Source of the DNA: Alphaproteobacteria bacterium
GTDB taxonomy: Bacteria > Pseudomonadota > Alphaproteobacteria > MPNO01
NCBI GenBank assembly: GCA_964291675.2
Contig: OZ219866.1
Span: 1,216,001 to 1,280,000, forward strand
Reading direction: 5' to 3'
DNA: 64,000 bases
Shown here piece after piece: positions 15,930-24,096 of this stretch. The position numbers were made by a program, and so were the translations under genes. Within the stretch, counting starts at the first letter, position 1; the number at the start of each line of letters is the position of its first letter. The notes under the pieces were generated by a model. The model made no database searches and had not been told where the DNA came from. It was given only the letters and a program-made list of their open reading frames with translations.

Positions 15930-16256
15930 TGCGAAGCCCGTCAGTACACTGATTATCCGATTGGAAAGCCTAAACCGGACCCATCCGCGTCGCAAGCCAT
16001 GTGTGACTGAGACGGAAGAATGGAAAACATGAGGGGGCCATTCAACTGCCGTCTAGGCCTGAACAAATCCATTGACGGTCCCAGGACTTTCAAGGTACAG
16101 ACATCCTCACCGATCCATTTTCACCTAGTGAGGGGGAGCCTATAAAGCAACGCAAGATTGACCGAATTTACTTTTGTCTTCAAGCTAGAATTAGTGAAAG
16201 TCGTCTATCTCGTCTGGTGCAACAGTAAATGCACTAGCTTTTGTTGGTTTGTCAAA

Positions 16257-16286
16257 TTGAAGGGGCCTTCGCTGCCTGCGTATACT
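16257..16286 (+). promoter_or_regulatory. Putative sigma70 promoter of the AT-richer cassette
   Basis: TTGAAG-N18-TATACT about 30-40 bp upstream of the start codon. Confidence 0.4.
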
Positions 16287-17413
16287 TCAAGACTAAGGGT
16301 ACCGTCGTGATTGTGTGTGGCTGGACGTGAACATATCCTTCAGAACGCAACTTCTTGGTAGTGTTGCTGACCTATGTTCCGAATGCAACTTTGCTCTGGC
16401 AAGACCGGACATCTTAGTAGAGTTGCTCGTTAGACTTGCGCGTTACCGAGAAGAAGGCACGAAACTTGCGCCGCAGGTTTATTTGACTGACGATATAGAC
16501 TTTGTAATGAAACTGCTTCCCGGCGGTGAAAAAGTCCCTCTTTCGACTGCGGCATCAGACCCCAACGGAGTTGAAAAATTGCTTAAGTTGTGCGCTCCCT
16601 TAGCTGTCGGTGAATGGAGGATATTCGGCCAACAGATTGCCGACGAACTTACTTTCGGTGTTTTCCGTGGATCAAGCAATCCCATATCAGTTAGTGTGGA
16701 TGATACTTTGTTGTCAGAACAGACTGAAGCAACGGTTATCAAATTACATCAAGTTGCAGAAGAATGTGTGCAACTACGAAGTTCTAAAGGTCACTGTGAT
16801 CACGTGTTCTTTAATCATCGCAAAGTGGAAGATCCAACCCCTCTTCAGTATATTGATGAACTCATTAATAGCATTGTAAAGAAAGTAGAAGACGATGTCA
16901 GAGATGCCGCACACGGCTTTATTGCAAAGACTATACAATCTGCGTTGGTTCACTCTCATGGATGTCTTTTGGCTGTTACTAGTATGCCGAGACCCCCGCA
17001 AGTGCTAAGTCTTGACGCCGTGATATTGGATCGGCCGATCGATTTCCCTTCGTTGATCAGGCAATTGAAGAAAGATGATGATACTAGCACTTGGTTACAG
17101 CATATCGAAAGAGAGGCTCAGTTAGTTGAAGGAATGATCAATTGCGATGGAATTACATTGTTTGATCAGTATGGGAAGTTGCTTGCTTATCGTTGCTTCA
17201 TCCAATTGCCAAGACGAGTGGACGTAGGGGGAGGAGCCCGACGGCGGGCCTTTGAAACTCTAAAGGGGCGACTAGGCAAAGGTCTCTCAGCCGTAAGCGT
17301 TCGGGGTAGCCGCCCTTGTCAGGGGTAGGTTCGGGACCGCAGTCTCTGTTCCGGGATTTGGCGGCCGATAGTGTCCATTATCGGCTAATGGACACTATCG
17401 TTGGGGGGCTGCG

Positions 17414-17761
17414 GTGGCGCGTCGTGTACGCCGGTTCTGGTCGGACGATGAGAAGCGCCGGATTGTTGCGCAGAGCTACGCGCCCGGGGTTTCGGTGTCG
17501 GTTGTGGCGCGTCGCTACGACGTGAACTCCAACCTGATCTTCACTTGGCGGCGCGATCCCCGCTACAGGCCGGCGGCGGATGGCGAGGGTGCGCCGTCCT
17601 TCCTGGCGGTGGAGGTGGTGCCCGATGCGCCGCCGTCAGAGCCGTCTGCGGCATCGGAGGGTCGGATCGAGATTGCGTTGTCGAGCGGCCACCGGGTGAG
17701 CGCGATCGGGGCGTTCGACGTGGACGCGCTGTGTCGCGTGGTGCGGGCGCTGGGCGGATGA
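17414..17761 (+). CDS. tnpA: IS66 TnpA (HTH)
   Basis: [13 protein letters not shown]...[19 protein letters not shown]. Confidence 0.92.
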
Positions 17762-18105
17762 TCCCGGTCCCGTCCTCGACCCGGGTATGGCTGGCCTGCG
17801 GGGTGACCGACATGCGCAAGGGGTTCCCGGGGCTTGCGGCGCAGGCGGAGCGGGTGTTGAAGGCGGATCCGCATTGCGGCCATCTCTTCATCTACCGGGG
17901 CCGTCGGGGCGACCTGATCAAGATGATCTGGTGGGACGGCCAGGGAGCGTGCCTGTTCTCGAAGCGTCTTGAGCGCGGCCGTTTCGTGTGGCCGTCGGCG
18001 TCGGAGGGCAAGGTTTCGGTGACGCCGGCGCAGCTGTCGATGCTGTTGGAGGGGATCGACTGGCGGGCGCCGGTTCGCACCTGGCGGCCTTTGGCGGCGG
18101 GATGA
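17758..18105 (+). CDS. tnpB: IS66 accessory protein TnpB
   Basis: [28 protein letters not shown]. Confidence 0.95.
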
Positions 18106-19526
18106 TTCATCGTTTATATACAATAGGTTGACTCCTATCCGGGCTTCCCTTTGGCGGCCTTTTCCTGTAGGCTGCGGTCATGCTCGAAGAGGCGCATTCC
18201 CTGCCTGACGACATCGCCGCACTGAAGGCGATGGTGCTGTCCTCGCGGGCCGAGGTGGCGGCGCGGGACGCCGAGTTGCGCAACCGTGACCTTCTGATCG
18301 AGAAGCTCAAGCACCAGCTTGCGGGTCTGCGCCGCCAGCGCTTCGGCGCCACTTCGGAGGCCCTCGATCAGCTTGAGCTCGGGCTGGAGGACGAGGAGAT
18401 CGCGCGCTCGGCCGAGACGTTTGCCGAGCCAGCCCCGGCGGCAAAGAGACAGCCCAAGCGCCGTCCCTTGCCGGACCACCTGCCGCGCGAGGAGACGCAT
18501 CTCGCGCCTTCAGGCGATCGCTGCGCGGACTGCGGCGGTCGCCTCAAGCGTCTCGGCGAGGATGTGACCGAGGAGCTGGAGTACATCCCCGGCCGCTTCG
18601 TGGTGAAGCGCATCGTGCGCCCGCGCCTGGCCTGCGGCGGCTGTGAGACGTTCCACCAAGCGCCGCTGCCGTCGCGGCCGATCGAGCGCGGCCGTCCGGG
18701 CCCGGGCCTTCTGGCGCATGTGCTGGTCTCGAAGTACTGCGATCACCTGCCGCTCTACCGTCAGTCGCGTATCTTCGCCCGCGATGGCGTCGATCTCGAC
18801 CGCTCGACGCTGGCCGGCTGGGTGGGCAAGGCGACGGCGCTGCTGGAGCCCCTGGCCGATGCCGTCGGGCGCCATGTTCTGGGCGGCCAAGCCCTGTTCG
18901 CCGACGACACCCCGGTCAAGTTGCTGGCGCCGGGGACCGGCAAGACGGCGACGGGTCGGGCCTGGACCTATGTCCGCGACGAGCGTCCGTGGAAGGGCGA
19001 GGCATCGCCGGCGGCGTGGTATCGCTTCTCGGCCGACCGCAAGGCGGCGCATCCGAAGAGCCATCTCGCGGGCTACGCCGGCTGGATGCACTCGGACGGC
19101 TATGCCGGCTTCGGCGCACTGGCGCGCGCGGGGCCGGTCCGCGAGGTCGCCTGCCTGGCCCATGTGCGGCGCAAGTTCTTCGACGTCCACGCCGCTCAGG
19201 GCTCGGCGGTCGCCGCCGAGGCGCTGGAACGGATCGCCGCGCTCTACGCCATCGAGAAGGAGGTCCGCGGGCAGCCCCCAGAGCGCCGCGTCGCGATCCG
19301 CCGCGCCAAGGCCGCGCCGCACCTCGATGAGTTCGAGCGCTGGCTGCAAACGCAACTGCCGAAGCTCTCCGCCAAGACCCCGCTGGCGGCGGCGATCCGC
19401 CATGCGCTGACCCGGCTGAAGCGCCTGCGGCCCTATATCGAGCACGGCTTCCTCGAGATCGACAACAACCCGGCCGAGCGCGCGATGCGCCCGATCGCGA
19501 CGATGGAGTCATTCTGCACCCCTTCT

Positions 19527-21599
19527 TCAAGTGTCTGAAAACATTGACATCTGATCCCGACATGAAGCGCGACGCGGGTCTTTCCGCAGTGCCAGGGCGT
19601 TGGCGACCCGCTCGGAATGGAGGTCTTTGGCCCTGATTTGCCAGGGCGCTCCGGGAACGAGTTGCGTGGCAGGTAGCGTTCCATCCTCGATCAGGCGCCT
19701 GAGGGTATGGCTGGTCGTGCCCAACTCTTTCGCCGCCTCGGTCATGGTGCGCCAGTCGCCCTGCTTGTCCGCTGAGAGGTAGCCGTCGATCCCGTTCACA
19801 CGCCGGATCGATCCGACCCGGTGAGCGGTCCAACTCTTGTGCTGCCCGGTCCGCATACCCATCCGGTTGAGCGACGCGGCGATATGTTCGTCCGACCATC
19901 GCCCGGCCATGCTGCGTATCACTGCCAGAGCTTCCTCGGGCGTTCGGCAGCCATGTTCGCCGCTCTTGGGCTTGCGGACCCTGAGACGGGAATGACGGCC
20001 ACCCATCCAGTGGATCGTCAGCAGGACGTCACGCGCCTCTTCGTCGACATCGACGATTATGCCCATGATCAGGGTGCGCACGAGACGCTGGCGGGCGCGC
20101 ATGCTCACCCCGGGCGCGTTCCAGGCGGCCTTCAGGTCGTCGGCAAGTCCGGCCAGGTCGGGGACAGTGGGCCGCGGCGACGGCATCGCGCCCAGCCTTG
20201 CTTCGCACGCCTGGACGCGTCGAAGCGCTGCCTCCCAACTCTTCTCCAGCTCGGCGGCGATCAGCCGGTTGTCCGGATCGCAGGCGGCGTAGCGCCGCTC
20301 GGCGAGCGCCGCCTCGTAGCGGGCTTGCTGCAGATCCAGCTCGGCCACCCGTTGCTGTTCGGAAAGACCCTCCGCGTTCATCCGCTCGGCTTCCAACGAG
20401 GCTTCCACCGCCATGGGCTCCACGACGCGGAGGATCTCATCGGCAACGGCCGCATCCACACGCGCACCCCCGAACCCCAGACAGGGCTCTAGCTCGAGCT
20501 GGAGGTGTCGCCGATTGCAGCGGTAGACAGGATTGCCGGGCGTGCGACCGGAATAGGCAACGCTCATCGTGCGTCCGCAGCGTGCGCAACTGAGGAGGCC
20601 GCCAAGAAGCGCCCGCCCGCCGCGCCCCGACTTCGTGCCCCCCGCCTTGCCGAAGGCATTGGCGGCGAGCTGCGCCTGGTTGCGCTCGAACTCCGGCCAG
20701 TCGATGTAGCCCTCGTGATGGTCCTTCAGCACGACCTCCCATTCCGCCATCGGCTTGCGGTGTCCATAGCTCTTGCGCACGCGCCCGTCGACGATCTCGG
20801 TCCGCCGCTCGCTTTTGCCGTAAGCGTAGACCCCGGCGTAGAAAGGGTTCTTCAACACCGAAATTACGTTGCGATAGCGGATCGGCGTCCAGTCGAAGGA
20901 GACCATTGTCCTGCCATCCGACGGGCGTGGGAAGCAAAGCTTCTGCCCGCTCAGCGCCAGCAACACCTGCCGCGCGCTGCCAAGCTCGCGAAACCGGGCG
21001 AATACCTGACGGATCGCTTCCTGAACCCGAATGTCGGGGTCCAGCCCCAGCCCGGCCTCGGGATGCCAGACGTAGCCGATCGGGACGCTGATGCGAAGCT
21101 CGCCGCGGGCGGCCTTGGAGCGGGCGGCCTCGAACATCCGAGCGCGCAGAACGCCGAGTTCGAACTCGCTGATCTGGCCCTTCATGCCGAGCAGCAGACG
21201 ATCGTTGGGGTGGCGAGGATCGTAGATGCCATCCTGGTCGATGACGCGTGCCTCGACGAGACCGCAGAGCTCGAGAAGATGGTGCCAGTCCCGGCCGTTG
21301 CGAGAGACCCGCGAAGCCTCGAAACAAAGCACGGCTCCAACGTCCCCGGCGCACAGCCAGGCGACGAGGCGCTCGAAACCGGGCCGCGCAACGGCACCGT
21401 CCGCCGACAGGCCCTGATCGTCGTCGATGACTTCGACCCGGGCAAAGCCGTGCCCGCGCGCCACATCGACGAGATCGTATTGGCGGCGCTGGCTCTCCAG
21501 ATTGTTCCGCATCTGCTGGGGCGTGGACTGACGGACATAGACCACGGCCTTGCGCGTCAACACCGATCGCGGCAACGCTTCAGCGACGCCCATCGTCAT
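19527..21599 (-). CDS. Large serine recombinase (resolvase, recombinase, Zn-ribbon, coiled coil, C-terminal HTH); start 21599 or 21593
   Basis: YVRQST catalytic Ser motif, RPGF, SRVSRN, CARCG...YRC, C-terminal excisionase-like HTH (TMTEAAKELG). Confidence 0.95.
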   Translation of the reverse strand: MTMGVAEALPRSVLTRKAVVYVRQSTPQQMRNNLESQRRQYDLVDVARGHGFARVEVIDDDQGLSADGAVARPGFERLVAWLCAGDVGAVLCFEASRVSRNGRDWHHLLELCGLVEARVIDQDGIYDPRHPNDRLLLGMKGQISEFELGVLRARMFEAARSKAARGELRISVPIGYVWHPEAGLGLDPDIRVQEAIRQVFARFRELGSARQVLLALSGQKLCFPRPSDGRTMVSFDWTPIRYRNVISVLKNPFYAGVYAYGKSERRTEIVDGRVRKSYGHRKPMAEWEVVLKDHHEGYIDWPEFERNQAQLAANAFGKAGGTKSGRGGRALLGGLLSCARCGRTMSVAYSGRTPGNPVYRCNRRHLQLELEPCLGFGGARVDAAVADEILRVVEPMAVEASLEAERMNAEGLSEQQRVAELDLQQARYEAALAERRYAACDPDNRLIAAELEKSWEAALRRVQACEARLGAMPSPRPTVPDLAGLADDLKAAWNAPGVSMRARQRLVRTLIMGIIVDVDEEARDVLLTIHWMGGRHSRLRVRKPKSGEHGCRTPEEALAVIRSMAGRWSDEHIAASLNRMGMRTGQHKSWTAHRVGSIRRVNGIDGYLSADKQGDWRTMTEAAKELGTTSHTLRRLIEDGTLPATQLVPGAPWQIRAKDLHSERVANALALRKDPRRASCRDQMSMFSDT

Positions 21600-21765
21600 C
21601 CTCCTTCACCGGGGCGGTCGCCGCTTCCAGAAGCAACCCGGCCACTGCGCTCACCACCGCGTCTCGTTCCTCCGAGCTCAGACCGCGCAGCGTCGGTGCG
21701 TCGAGCGGCATGCCGAGCTGTCGGGGTTCTCTCGGCGGTCGCGCTGTTACAGGCAAAGACTTCAT
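21580..21765 (-). CDS. Small accessory protein of the recombinase element (61 aa)
   Basis: GGAGAGGAG RBS then ATG; ...LSSEERDAVVSAVAGLLLEAA helical peptide overlapping the LSR start. Confidence 0.65.
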   Translation of the reverse strand: MKSLPVTARPPREPRQLGMPLDAPTLRGLSSEERDAVVSAVAGLLLEAATAPVKEDDDGRR

Positions 21766-22075
21766 CGCGCTCCTCTCCGCTAACGGTTCCGTCATCGGGG
21801 GAGCTATGTCGAAAACCTTGGCCGACGAGAAGCTCGTGAAGTGCGGCGAGGGCGGCCGGGGAGGCACGCGGCGCGCCGATCTCCATGCCGGCGCATGACG
21901 CAGGATCAAGCATCCAGGCGGGTATCTTGATGATCAGCCCCGGCTCTACCTCGACGGAGGCCATGAGGCCGTCTGCACGCTGTTCGATAACTTCAGGGCG
22001 TACTCGCCGACCGAACAGTGCGTGCCAGCGGTAGTGGATGACGCAATCCTGCCCGATATGGGCAGAATGAATGCG
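21596..22075 (-). CDS. Accessory protein body whose 5' end (ATG at 19512) lies at the opposite end of the element; 166 aa in the circular form
   Basis: Open from the right att junction (RIHSAHIGQDCVIHYRWHALFG...IPAWMLD) to a TGA overlapping the LSR ATG; no start codon upstream of the junction in the integrated state. Confidence 0.7.
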   Translation of the reverse strand, partial: RIHSAHIGQDCVIHYRWHALFGRRVRPEVIEQRADGLMASVEVEPGLIIKIPAWMLDPASCAGMEIGAPRASPAALAALHELLVGQGFRHSSPDDGTVSGEERDEVFACNSATAERTPTARHAARRTDAARSELGGTRRGGERSGRVASGSGDRPGEGG

Positions 22076-22389
22076 CGATCGCCTTGGGCCGGAAGAACTA
22101 TCTCTTCATGGGCTCAGCCAGCGGCGGCCGGGCCGCCGCCATCGCCTACACCTTGATCGAGACCGCAAGGCTCAACCACGTCGACCCGCAGGCTTGGCTT
22201 GCCCAGGTTCTCGAGCGCATCCCCGACTACAAGATCAACCGCGTCGAAGAACTGCTGCCCTGGAACTGAACGCCGACCGCAGATCAGGGCCAAATCGCCT
22301 GAACGCCCAGGGCGGCTCCGCCCAACGCTTACTCTCAGCCGCCTATATTCGATCCGAAGATGGGTGGACAGACTTCGGGAGCACTGCCC

Positions 22390-23712
22390 GTGGCTAATAC
22401 AATGAAACTATGGCAGCCGGACAAGCAACAATTAGTGCCCAAGGATGCACGAACGGCAAAGTCCATTGCTAAGTGCGCTAGGCAACTTTCCCAGCGAGAC
22501 AAGGGACAGATCGTATCAGCATTCAAGTCCGGCCACTACGATATGGGGATCAATTTCCTCTGGCTTAGAACTATCGCAGCGCTGAAACGGGAATTGGCGA
22601 CCGTAGGGATAGGACTGTTAGGAGAAATGCTTGGGCGAGTTGGGGTAAATGAAGACGACGATATCGAGGATCTTCTAACGCCACGTGAAACGATTCGCTT
22701 GGCTGGGGAATTAGGCGCCATCTCTCAGACCGAAGCTATGCGATTGCGACAGACGCATGAATTGGTTGTCCATTTTAACCAACTCTCTTTTGAGGAGGAT
22801 CCACTCGAAGAAATCAACGAATCGGAAGCAATCACATCCCTTAGGGCATGTGTTTCAGCGGTGCTCGCGAAGCCAAAAATAGAGGTCGCTAAGACTTTTG
22901 TTGAATTCAGGGAATCTCTAGAGACCGAGGCATTTGGGTCGGATGAAGAAAAGATCAATTTGCTAGTGGGTTCTCCATACTTCTTTTGGAAGTTAACCAT
23001 CGACATCCTGATGAACTCCGCAAAGGATTCGTCCGGCGTTAAGTTGGAACATTGCTTGGCTAATTTAAACGTTATATTGCCTAAGTTGTGGCCAAATTTG
23101 AAAGATGCCGAGAAGTGGCGCGTCGGACGCACGTATGCTGAAGTGCATTCAGAAGGAAAGTCAACTTCATCGAGCGGCCTAAAGCAGGCTCTCATGAAGG
23201 TGCAGGGATTTGACTTTGTGCCTGAGAACCTTCGCAGTGATACCTTTGTCAAAGCCGCTGAGGCAGTGGTGCGTGCCCATGACGGAATGAATAATTTCTA
23301 TAATGAAGGCGCACCAGTTAGAAATCTTGCCCAACTCGGAACTTCAATTCCGCCGCCCGCTTTGCCAGCATGTATGACGGCGTTGTTGGCAGTATACGTC
23401 GGAAATCAATATGGTTATTCTTTCGAAGCAGCTCCCGTGGCAGAGAGGATGCTGTCTGGGATTAGTGATGATAGGTGGCGCTATTATTTGAACCAAGTGT
23501 TGCCCAACGATACTAGGATACTCAATAAACTAGCATTGCATTCCAAGCCGCGCGGGCGATGGATGGATTTAGTTGATCGGAATGCCCTTGGCGAATGCCG
23601 AGTTAATGACCGTCGGGTGGGTAAGATGCTCGATGCTGCAGGGCAAAAGAACGAGAACGAGATTGGTCAGACCGCGAAAAAACTCTTGGGACGATATTAC
23701 AAAAAAGCGTGA
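22390..23712 (+). CDS. Hypothetical helical protein, possibly HEPN/DUF4145-like N-terminus
   Basis: About 440-aa AT-richer ORF; GGGAG RBS then GTG overlapping the DAC-like stop; SAFKSGHYDMGINFLW...LKREL and RLRQTHELVVH motifs. Confidence 0.75.
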   Translation: MANTMKLWQPDKQQLVPKDARTAKSIAKCARQLSQRDKGQIVSAFKSGHYDMGINFLWLRTIAALKRELATVGIGLLGEMLGRVGVNEDDDIEDLLTPRETIRLAGELGAISQTEAMRLRQTHELVVHFNQLSFEEDPLEEINESEAITSLRACVSAVLAKPKIEVAKTFVEFRESLETEAFGSDEEKINLLVGSPYFFWKLTIDILMNSAKDSSGVKLEHCLANLNVILPKLWPNLKDAEKWRVGRTYAEVHSEGKSTSSSGLKQALMKVQGFDFVPENLRSDTFVKAAEAVVRAHDGMNNFYNEGAPVRNLAQLGTSIPPPALPACMTALLAVYVGNQYGYSFEAAPVAERMLSGISDDRWRYYLNQVLPNDTRILNKLALHSKPRGRWMDLVDRNALGECRVNDRRVGKMLDAAGQKNENEIGQTAKKLLGRYYKKA

Positions 23713-24096
23713 TTCCAATTGGCGGAGTGAGGCCCGAGATTGGCGTTCCGGACCGACTCCACTACCACCGGCTTCGCGTTGGTGGACACTTCAGGCACGG
23801 AACAGCGTTCGGCGAACACTTCGCAATCGAGGTTAACGCCGACCACTCATTGGCACTCAGCGAAGGGGCCTTTTTCTTCATCACGCTTCGCGCGACGTGG
23901 CAGGCGTATCTGAACGCCTTGACGCTGGTGCCGGGCGGACCGGCTACGATGTGGCGGCCCGCAGTTCAAGCGCAATGGAACAGGCGGCGCCGCCCCGGGC
24001 GCGGCATATCGCCGCGTGCGGCCGATTGCGCATTCCCGGGCTGTGCGAACGAGCCATTGTCACGGCGACCGACCGCCAACGGGAGCCGTAGCGACG

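Follow-up and report, generated by a model that had tools for sequence, protein, structure and literature searches.

A large serine recombinase mini-element in the transposase gene of IS66 insertion sequences, with a gene split across its predicted circular attachment site

The window analysed here, a stretch of 64,000 nucleotides (contig OZ219866.1, positions 1,216,001 to 1,280,000; assembly GCA_964291675.2) from an alphaproteobacterium of the GTDB group MPNO01, carries an insertion sequence of the IS66 family whose transposase gene, tnpC, is interrupted by a 2,584-bp unit encoding a large serine recombinase (LSR). This unit is very probably an autonomous, site-specific integrative mini-element that targets IS66 tnpC and encodes two small proteins besides the LSR, from the open reading frames (ORFs) ORF-A and ORF-B, with ORF-A split across attP, the attachment site of the circular form. 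Integrative elements moved by serine recombinases are a known kind. What is new here is a transposase codon as the target, a minimal circle that is all coding, a gene divided by attP and the existence of natural core variants.

The IS66 family is defined by GTAAGCG-type terminal repeats, an 8-bp target duplication and the gene order tnpA-tnpB-tnpC, and the host of the element displays each of these features (Table 1). Its tnpC carries the Pfam domains LZ_Tnp_IS66, zf-IS66 and DDE_Tnp_IS66 on the 5' piece, and the coding sequence reads ..CCG ATC GC up to position 19498, from where the frame restarts at 22081/22083 (GC C TTG GGC CGG AAG..). An earlier note, made from the letters of this stretch alone, had placed an insert of 2,584 bp in tnpC at NNPAERAMRP|IA|LGRKN and had predicted that its precise excision would give a TnpC of 501 amino acids. 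The insert is borne out at 19499-22082, and its removal joins 1319 and 187 nt into a gene of 1506 nt, that is 501 codons and a stop. A Glu, which the note had taken as the likely catalytic one, lies seven residues upstream of the split codon and is present in every tnpC left flank displayed from homologous loci.

Table 1. Positions of the element, its attachment sites, its genes and the IS66 that hosts it (coordinates of the window)
Feature	Position	Strand	Remarks
LSR element, 2,584 bp	19499..22082	- (genes on minus strand)	one GC counted
attL crossover dinucleotide	19497..19498	.	GC
Left (LSR-distal) 9-bp arm	19509..19517	.	TCATTCTGC; gene strand reads GCAGAATGA and holds ATG 19512-19510
Right 9-bp arm	22062..22070	.	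GCAGAATGA; gene strand encodes His-Ser-Ala of ORF-A
attR crossover dinucleotide	22081..22082	.	GC
Large serine recombinase, 690 aa	19527..21599	-	Resolvase, Recombinase, Zn_ribbon_recom; C-terminal HTH_17/MerR-type helix-turn-helix
ORF-A body, 161 codons and stop	21596..22081	-	stop overlaps LSR ATG; N-terminal 95 aa form a conserved SH3-like domain; startless when integrated
Purine-rich, ribosome-binding-like tract	19515..19527	-	between LSR stop codon and arm ATG
ORF-B, 61 aa	21580..21765	-	+1 frame inside ORF-A tail; stop overlaps LSR start region; conserved GGAGAGGAG and ATG
IS66-family insertion sequence hosting the element	17293..22332	+	terminal inverted repeats 17293-17316 and 22309-22332, beginning GTAAGCG
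8-bp target duplication TCTCAGCC	17285..17292 (left copy), 22333-22340 (right copy)	.	
tnpA	17414..17761	+	Pfam HTH_Tnp_1
tnpB	17758..18105	+	Pfam TnpB_IS66
tnpC 5' part, attB left half	18180..19498	+	440 codons; ends ..NNPAERAMRPI and GC of the Ala codon
tnpC 3' part, attB right half	22083..22269	+	..LGRKNYLFMGS..; Pfam DDE_Tnp_IS66_C

The ends of the element have the architecture of serine-integrase sites. As the note had described for this copy, the two 9-bp arms are perfect inverted repeats, each 10 nt from a GC dinucleotide (GC-N10-TCATTCTGC on the left, GCAGAATGA-N10-GC on the right). They are not a matter of chance, because they are kept across 42-51 distinct ends: the right arm is near-invariant, with 1.6-2.0 bits per position at 8 of its 9 positions in 51 distinct right ends, and the left arm is conserved as TCATTNTRC in 42 distinct left ends from other genomes. 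The window copy alone cannot place the crossover, because its attL and attR have seven base pairs in common (CGATCGC). In the third copy of the same genome, described below, GC is the only sequence common to attL and attR, with mismatches on either side; this places the crossover at the GC about which the arms are symmetric, as had been proposed. Two hallmarks of LSR elements are thus found, a 2-bp crossover identical in attL and attR and inverted half-sites symmetric about this core. The element is almost wholly coding, and attP falls within a gene.

The genome from which the window was taken (G000; two contigs, C1 and C2, 4.8 Mb) holds three full copies of the element, two of them 100% identical and the third one base shorter. 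The identical copies lie in identical IS66s at different sites, flanked by 8-bp target duplications of TCTCAGCC and GTTTCGAA, respectively. The third (C2:3465944-3468526) occupies another IS66, whose TnpC is 41% identical, and is inserted at the same codon (..TNNAAERALRGI / A / LGRKSWLFAG..). It differs solely by a 1-base deletion, CCTTGG to CCTGG at window 21818/21819, which fuses the N-terminal domain of ORF-A in frame to ORF-B in a 165-codon frame counted from the crossover. Two remnants accompany the full copies: a segment at C2:2698-3381, 80% identical over ORF-A, ORF-B and the right end, which has no adjoining recombinase gene and meets the C-terminal part of a tnpC via TG rather than GC, and a 180-bp fragment at C2:3252668-3252849 that is 90% identical. 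The second composite of IS66 and element (C1:896399-900809) carries a further insert of about 4.4 kb where tnpA meets tnpB, probably another insertion sequence, with a CCGGT duplication at its flanks and the ends TGAGC...GCTCA.

Target choice was surveyed in a scan of one genome per species, which gave 351 relatives; 80 loci with 64-89% LSR identity were kept, their ends were placed by the arm motifs and their flanks were tested with six TnpC queries. The readable junctions numbered 56 on the left and 63 on the right. On the left, 46 adjoin the N-terminal part of tnpC in forward orientation, 3 an inverted C-terminal part and 7 other sequence; on the right, 54 adjoin the C-terminal part forward, 1 an inverted N-terminal part and 8 other sequence, two of which (L017, L051) look by eye like decayed C-terminal parts and a third (L033) is an inverted N-terminal part by the motif test. 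Identity of the host TnpCs to that of the window varies between about 30% and 91%, and the site codes for the consensus ..N-x-x-E-R/N-x-x-R-x-[IVF] / A / L-G-R-K... Homologues thus lie at the tnpC position in most readable junctions, so that insertion at unrelated sites, which the note had named as a refuting result, is not what is found. Its proposal that a conserved IS66 coding sequence serves as attB holds both for these 46 of 56 and 54 of 63 junctions and for the two unrelated IS66s of the window genome that are hit at the same codon. In one metagenome-assembled genome (MAG; L010-L014), no fewer than three IS66 variants and one non-IS66 site are occupied by the same element. At L012 (MAG contig CBDBGH010000003.1), the element stands outside a recognisable tnpC, between flanks that have a loose resemblance to the usual site, and its right flank, CTCGGCC.., is shifted by one base; this locus is possibly a secondary site or a decayed IS66.

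The crossover dinucleotide varies together with the target. Most loci have GC at both junctions, and GT/GT is found at five, AC/AC at two and AA/AA, TG/TG and CT/CT at one each; in every instance the core is the first two bases of the split codon, which encodes Ala, Val, Thr, Lys or Cys. The element with the AA core is located in ..RPI / K / LTKKN.., a motif also carried by one empty IS66 in the window genome. Six loci have different dinucleotides at attL and attR, namely L027, L037, L040 and L068 (all AC/GC), L088, and L015, where one arm is doubtful. The AC at attL of L040 looks like an immobilising point mutation, because the flank otherwise equals that of L038. Elements with cores other than GC fall on separate branches of a recombinase tree (65 sequences, quick maximum likelihood, midpoint root), which suggests, as far as a tree of this kind can tell, that the core dinucleotide has been re-tuned repeatedly.

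Under the rule known from serine integrases, a palindromic core cannot set orientation, and phiC31 and Bxb1 use a non-palindromic one. Such an orientation-fixing core is absent from the window copy and from most loci, which have the palindromic GC. The att pair is therefore limited as a tool for recombination: of the use that the note had foreseen, the natural core variants speak in favour, and the palindrome restricts it. Insertions in the other orientation do occur. L033 is a full inverted insertion, and L025, L061 and L088 have one inverted junction each. Homologous recombination between inverted copies was considered as the source of the junctions with inverted C-terminal parts and was rejected, given that its worked-through products cannot yield them. 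The inverted junctions, which are rare, therefore need antiparallel site-specific exchange and are the type of product that it should give when the core is palindromic.

Unoccupied sites occur in nature. A congener of the window genome (G017) has at least 30 copies of an IS66 that is 88% identical; among the 24 examined, 23 are uninterrupted (..GGCCGATC GC GCTCGGCCGC..) and one is occupied at exactly the same point. In this occupied copy (L016/L122) the LSR and ORF-B are themselves interrupted by further insertions, and it is an IS66-type end that breaks the LSR. Two other relatives also have uninterrupted IS66s, one of which encodes a TnpC of 509 amino acids with ..NNPAERAIRPIALGRKNYLFMGS.. 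at the site. Occupancy differs sharply between the two genomes, with 3 of 3 IS66 copies bearing the IALGRK motif occupied in the window genome versus 1 of 24 in the congener. The note had also suggested a search for empty IS66 copies in the same genome; one was found, the RPI / K / LTKKN copy, and all three with IALGRK are filled.

Contigs from four public sequencing runs (X1-X4), matched to the stretch at a 90% limit that also admits relatives, include the unoccupied form. In X1, X2 and X3 a contig joins 19491(+7) to 22076(+7) and skips exactly 2,584 bp, the seven letters that fit either side of the joint being the 7-bp identity of attL and attR. Depths of the joint contigs were 28.3, 238.9 and 8.63, versus 12.9, 56.4 and 7.46 for the interior of the element. 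A second joint, from 19499 to 22084, appears in two runs. The unoccupied form therefore occurs in the same samples, and excised and never-occupied copies look alike in such joints. The part of the earlier claim that stands, for an element said to switch off the transposase reversibly, is the existence of precise empty sites; excision itself is inferred, and none was observed.

The recombinase matches PF00239 (E 2e-20, residues 18-167), PF07508 (E 1e-17) and PF13408 (E 2.5e-7), and its helix-turn-helix (HTH) lies at residues 618-661; the Pfam search returned no match to DUF4368. The nucleophile serine, S25, and its neighbours Y21, R23 and Q24 do not vary in an alignment of 28 sequences, one of which is a paralogue of 36% identity. 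By sequence, its sole solved relatives are SprA/YokA of SPbeta (E 1.7e-7). The family is very large: of 8,000 candidates scored from the protein collection, 7,973 fall at E <= 0.001. The best 120 relatives are 71-96% identical and nearly all 689-692 amino acids long, and many come from contigs of 2.5-2.9 kb, the length of the element. Hosts of the homologues are mostly Alpha- and Betaproteobacteria, among them Mesorhizobium, Rhizobium, Sphingobium, Burkholderia, Paraburkholderia, Cupriavidus and Methylocystis. Metagenome proteins of the family number in the thousands. A relative is also present in 264 plasmid records, among them much-studied replicons of rhizobia and of the Burkholderia group, where public annotation has just 'recombinase family protein' beside a truncated 'IS66 family transposase'. 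The window genome additionally contains a paralogous module, present twice at 100% identity near contig ends (C2:3649413-3652735 and C1:1134484-1137801, L133), which consists of a DUF5372 protein (108 amino acids), an HTH_32 protein (152 amino acids) and an LSR of 718 amino acids that is 37% identical and ends in the same MerR-type HTH.

The recombinase is not the only conserved product. The note had called the element minimal, a word that calls for qualification, since two conserved small ORFs are carried besides the recombinase. The 62 distinct copies that were aligned show third-position periodicity, which starts at the arm, keeps one frame for about 260 nt, shifts by +1 for about 110 nt and then continues in the frame of the LSR. 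The first of these frames, ORF-A, is open over 144-174 codons in 57 distinct copies, and its first 95 residues (HSAH[IV]GQEVEVHYRWHPLYGRRV...AAWMLDP..C...) have a mean column identity of 64%. AlphaFold2 predicts a small barrel with helices, with a pLDDT of about 90 over residues 10-90. The predicted fold has no Foldseek match at E <= 0.001 and in VIA-align finds generic small-barrel matches alone (KOW, Tudor, BAH; Z <= 6.3), from which we draw no function. A Pfam search with ORF-A and ORF-B gave nothing credible, just sub-threshold matches to Raffinose_syn.

The position of ORF-A across attP divides its start from its body. In the integrated state the frame extends into antisense tnpC for 0-30 codons in most loci, and many of these, the window included, offer no start at all. 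At the far end of the element, the gene strand reads from the LSR stop codon through the purine-rich tract to the arm as GCAGA-ATG-A. When the two ends are joined in silico (59 rebuilt junctions, 45 of them distinct; two of the 59 have doubtful arms), 58 of the 59 have the ATG of the arm in frame with ORF-A and no stop in the nine codons between them. Thirty-nine of 40 distinct left ends keep this ATG, and 22 of the 40 match the Shine-Dalgarno sequence AAGGAGGTGA over at least 5 nt. ORF-A would thus be complete solely in the excised circle, because it is the far end that supplies a ribosome-binding tract and an ATG. Translation from the joined ends is most likely, judging from the sequences, and some integrated contexts appear able to provide a start too. 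In the integrated state, the arm ATG (from 19512 downwards on the minus strand) and the purine-rich tract open a 199-codon frame antisense to tnpC, in the frame of ORF 18916..19899.

Relatives of ORF-A show a similar lack of a fixed beginning. A search with a profile of the domain yields 2,555 cluster representatives (E <= 0.001), and in the best 150 of them the called N-terminus lies anywhere from 2 to 83 residues from the HSAH motif, the spread to be expected of a gene that has no fixed start. Five of these 150 begin with a circle-type N-terminus and come from source contigs of 660-1,836 bp; another 17 start at an ATG that arises from the antisense of the IS66 K-S-W codons.

A natural junction of the attP type was found with a degenerate joined-ends pattern in one metagenome contig (L134, a 2,389-bp record); viral contigs contained none. 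The junction reads GCAGAATGA, 10 nt, GT, 10 nt and TCATTGTGC, and has ORF-A (41% identity) on one side and an LSR C-terminus (55% identity over residues 577-672) on the other. In this contig GAAGGTGGAG is followed after 5 nt by ATG and then by MKPSSQAPFHSAHVG.., and an ORF-A led by this ATG is intact across the junction. By its sequence, this is the predicted attP of a relative with a GT core. The ORF-A domain of this contig is followed by an IS3-family insertion.

A distant relationship of ORF-A to DUF5372 (PF17342) may exist, going by sequence comparisons of unequal outcome. In Pfam searches 2 of 36 members matched (best E 0.034), and none of 40 library relatives did so at E <= 0.01. The ESM Atlas returned a best score of 0.93, and 30 of 30 matches carry DUF5372. 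Alignment of ORF-A with the true DUF5372 of the same genome by hhalign was weak (probability 20.7%, E 1.1e-3), with HP[FW]HPL[HY]GR as the common motif. Among 10 DUF5372 loci from 201 sampled genomes of the class, 9 have a paralogous LSR within about 1 kb, with DUF5372 upstream. The literature searched does not mention DUF5372.

ORF-B has the conserved core P.QL.M.LD...L.G[LM]...ER, and its counterpart in plasmid pRL12 of Rhizobium johnstonii is annotated in RefSeq as a hypothetical protein of 59 amino acids. We regard it as a candidate directionality or excision factor. A programmed +1 frameshift between ORF-A and ORF-B, which the fusing deletion in the third copy brings to mind, may exist but was set aside as an alternative, given the ribosome-binding site and ATG of ORF-B that are conserved across the family.

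These data are compatible with the following cycle, modelled on what is known of the LSR family. The recombinase would pair the symmetric attP of the circle (9-bp arm, 10 bp, 2-bp core, 10 bp, 9-bp arm) with the site in tnpC and exchange strands at the 2-bp core, here the GC with which the Ala codon begins. Integration would remove the last 61 residues of TnpC, a loss by which IS66 should be disabled, and precise excision would restore tnpC. On the circle, ORF-A would be translated, and termination at the ATGA overlap would feed translation of the LSR, favouring re-integration. Once integrated, ORF-A would lose its start, and the intact ORF-B would be the candidate excision factor. A wider proposal, which we put forward tentatively and hold to be possible rather than probable, is that of a widespread hyperparasitic family, restricted to IS66, that senses its own state: ORF-A, as a circle-only, DUF5372-like partner of the recombinase, and ORF-B would together act as a switch with two states that needs no regulator of its own, the re-tuning of cores would reflect an arms race, and the element might act as a brake on IS66. 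The earlier idea that the element hitch-hikes on IS66 is suggested by the two IS66::element composites with their own duplications, which independent invasion of two IS66 copies would explain equally well.

Several observations count against this account. For the window genome, no recombination, excision or circle was observed; its assembly lacks the joined-ends junction, and the contigs of runs X1-X4 contain no end-to-end joint, which says little because contigs drop rare forms. The natural junction in L134 could belong to a tandem or other stable arrangement and not to a free circle. A scan of 19400-22400 gave no sigma-70-like promoter and no terminator. About one junction in eight (7/56 on the left and 8/63 on the right) has a flank that is not recognisably tnpC. 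The LSR is antisense to tnpC in nearly all insertions despite the palindromic GC, an unexplained regularity for which either selection against inverted insertions or another determinant of polarity may be responsible. The ribosome-binding tract of the window copy does not belong to the 22 of 40 with a clear match; it falls in the G-rich, weaker remainder. Furthermore, IS66s with a TCA Ser codon give an in-frame ATG at a distance of six codons beyond the junction, from which the integrated form, too, could make ORF-A. Finally, the single-base deletion in the third copy may be a mutation, an assembly error or a hint of a functional fused product, and the two-gene reading of ORF-A and ORF-B is perhaps incomplete.

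How well do other explanations fare? That the recombinase is cargo of IS66, or an accessory resolvase or invertase that spreads solely as part of the insertion sequence, can hardly be maintained. Its location always inside IS66 and the two identical composites at different sites, each with its own 8-bp duplication, would fit, but the same unit, one base different, sits in an IS66 whose TnpC is 41% identical, the insert breaks the transposase frame, and it has symmetric ends of its own and a 2-bp core that co-varies with the target; the 23 of 24 near-identical congener copies that are precisely without it largely refute the idea. It is also improbable that the element is a fossil, an ancient insertion with an inactive recombinase that multiplies via IS66 transposition or homologous exchange. 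The dead copies with AC at attL and GC at attR (L027, L040 and L068, as well as L037, whose flanks are not tnpC), the sole copy in the congener, whose LSR an IS66 insertion has broken, the two remnants in the window genome and the near-uniform orientation, as a few founding events would give, all point that way. Against it stand copies one base apart in IS66s with 41% TnpC identity, the MAG in which no fewer than three IS66 variants and a non-IS66 site hold the same element, the codon-level constraint on intact LSR, ORF-A and ORF-B across 57 distinct copies, and the existence of an attP junction.

We think it unlikely, though worth serious attention, that the element is as described and ORF-A is not specific to the circle, its conservation reflecting DNA bound by the recombinase, or starts in the flank or inside the gene, with the arm ATG incidental. 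The ATG does lie inside an arm that would be conserved anyway for recombinase binding, the 17 of 150 best relatives that start at the K-S-W antisense ATG use the flank, the Shine-Dalgarno matches leave out the window copy, and the runs of the window genome yielded no circle among their contigs. On the other hand, the periodicity extends over about 260 nt, well past a 25-bp half-site; the upstream frame of the integrated form is 0-30 codons in most loci and often startless; the rebuilt frame stays open in 58 of 59 cases though the 22 nt between the arms vary; the purine-rich tract lies outside the symmetric site, between the LSR stop and the arm; and the natural contig L134 combines GAAGGTGGAG, ATG and an intact ORF-A.

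The element resembles phiC31, Bxb1, A118 and SprA of SPbeta in the order Resolvase-Recombinase-zinc ribbon and in its inverted arms around an identical 2-bp crossover. It differs from such phage-type integrases in that it is 2.6 kb long without phage or other cargo, that the LSR has an extra C-terminal HTH_17/MerR-type domain, that the core is mostly the palindromic GC and that attP lies in a coding frame. Elements of the Tn4451/Tn5397 type are excised by their LSR as a non-replicating circle that re-inserts; they carry resistance cargo and a GA core and are loose in their choice of target. With Tn4451/Tn4453 (TnpX) and Tn5397 (TndX) the present element has in common that an LSR would move it and that expression depends on its state, a logic that here is proposed; unlike them it has a GC core, no DUF4368 and a single tnpC codon as target. 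A passage in PMC10083194 links DUF4368 to multi-targeting LSRs, and the circle joint of Tn4451 forms a promoter for tnpX, according to the title of Lyras and Rood (2000) as it stands in the reference list of PMC13023037. Rather than a promoter, or besides one, the joint of our element would complete a reading frame, by adding a start codon and a ribosome-binding tract. A section of PMC13023037 describes for ICEclc (Pcir) and ICEKp1 (P3'end) how excision joins the ends so that a signal at the 3' end drives the gene at the 5' end. There a promoter is moved upstream of an intact int, whereas the element separates the translation start from the gene body.

The splitting of a coding gene whose frame precise excision restores is shared with skin/SpoIVCA in sigK, SPbeta in spsM and the fdxN element with XisF. 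Both skin, with SpoIVCA, and the cyanobacterial fdxN element, with XisF, are excisable gene-interrupting elements that use serine recombinases. For SPbeta, the abstract of PMC5499854 states that it splits spsM and that precise excision restores the frame. These elements interrupt developmental genes of their hosts and are excised in terminal cells; in contrast, the one described here splits a transposase gene that belongs to a different mobile element, and does so in many copies and taxa. Site-specific parasites of mobile elements are known in IS5075/IS4321, which enter the inverted repeats of the Tn21 family, and in the 'res hunters' Tn5053/Tn402, with DEDD/DDE transposases and non-coding targets. 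Unlike these, our element uses a serine recombinase on a coding motif, with a core dinucleotide that follows the codon it hits. IS607 is likewise a small element moved by a serine recombinase, its TnpA being a small protein with an N-terminal MerR-type HTH, a C-terminal catalytic domain and little target choice; the LSR of the element, in contrast, has 690 amino acids, an N-terminal catalytic domain (18-167), its HTH at 618-661 and the domains of large recombinases. Full-text literature on IS66 together with serine or large serine recombinases, or on interrupted tnpC, contained no description of the element, with ISfinder/TnPedia and subscription journals outside the search and a prior description thus possible. 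A large survey of serine recombinases and their targets makes no mention of IS66 in its text or in six supplementary files.

The IS66 of the window lies within a low-GC island (44-48% GC) in surroundings of 70-77% GC. The rest of the island (16000-17292 and 22333-23800) contains two ORFs without a Pfam match, 16315-17328 and 22360-23712, the former cut near its 3' end by the IS66. Elsewhere in the genome, at C2:3472360-3472520, a C-terminal fragment of tnpC starts a few bases before the codon in which crossover usually falls (..GIALGRRSWLFAG) and is preceded by a GC-rich, hairpin-like inverted repeat.

These findings add a layer of parasitism among bacterial mobile elements, in the form of a recombinase family specialised on a coding motif of the IS66 transposase. 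Its natural attP/attB pairs of about 40 bp, with six core variants, are raw material for orthogonal recombination sites, with the proviso that the commonest core, GC, is palindromic. A start codon and a gene body that are united solely by excision would give the element a compact sensor of whether it is in or out. DUF5372 gains a context, as small proteins are encoded just upstream of this recombinase clade. The sharp difference in occupancy between related genomes makes the effect of the element on the proliferation of IS66 testable.

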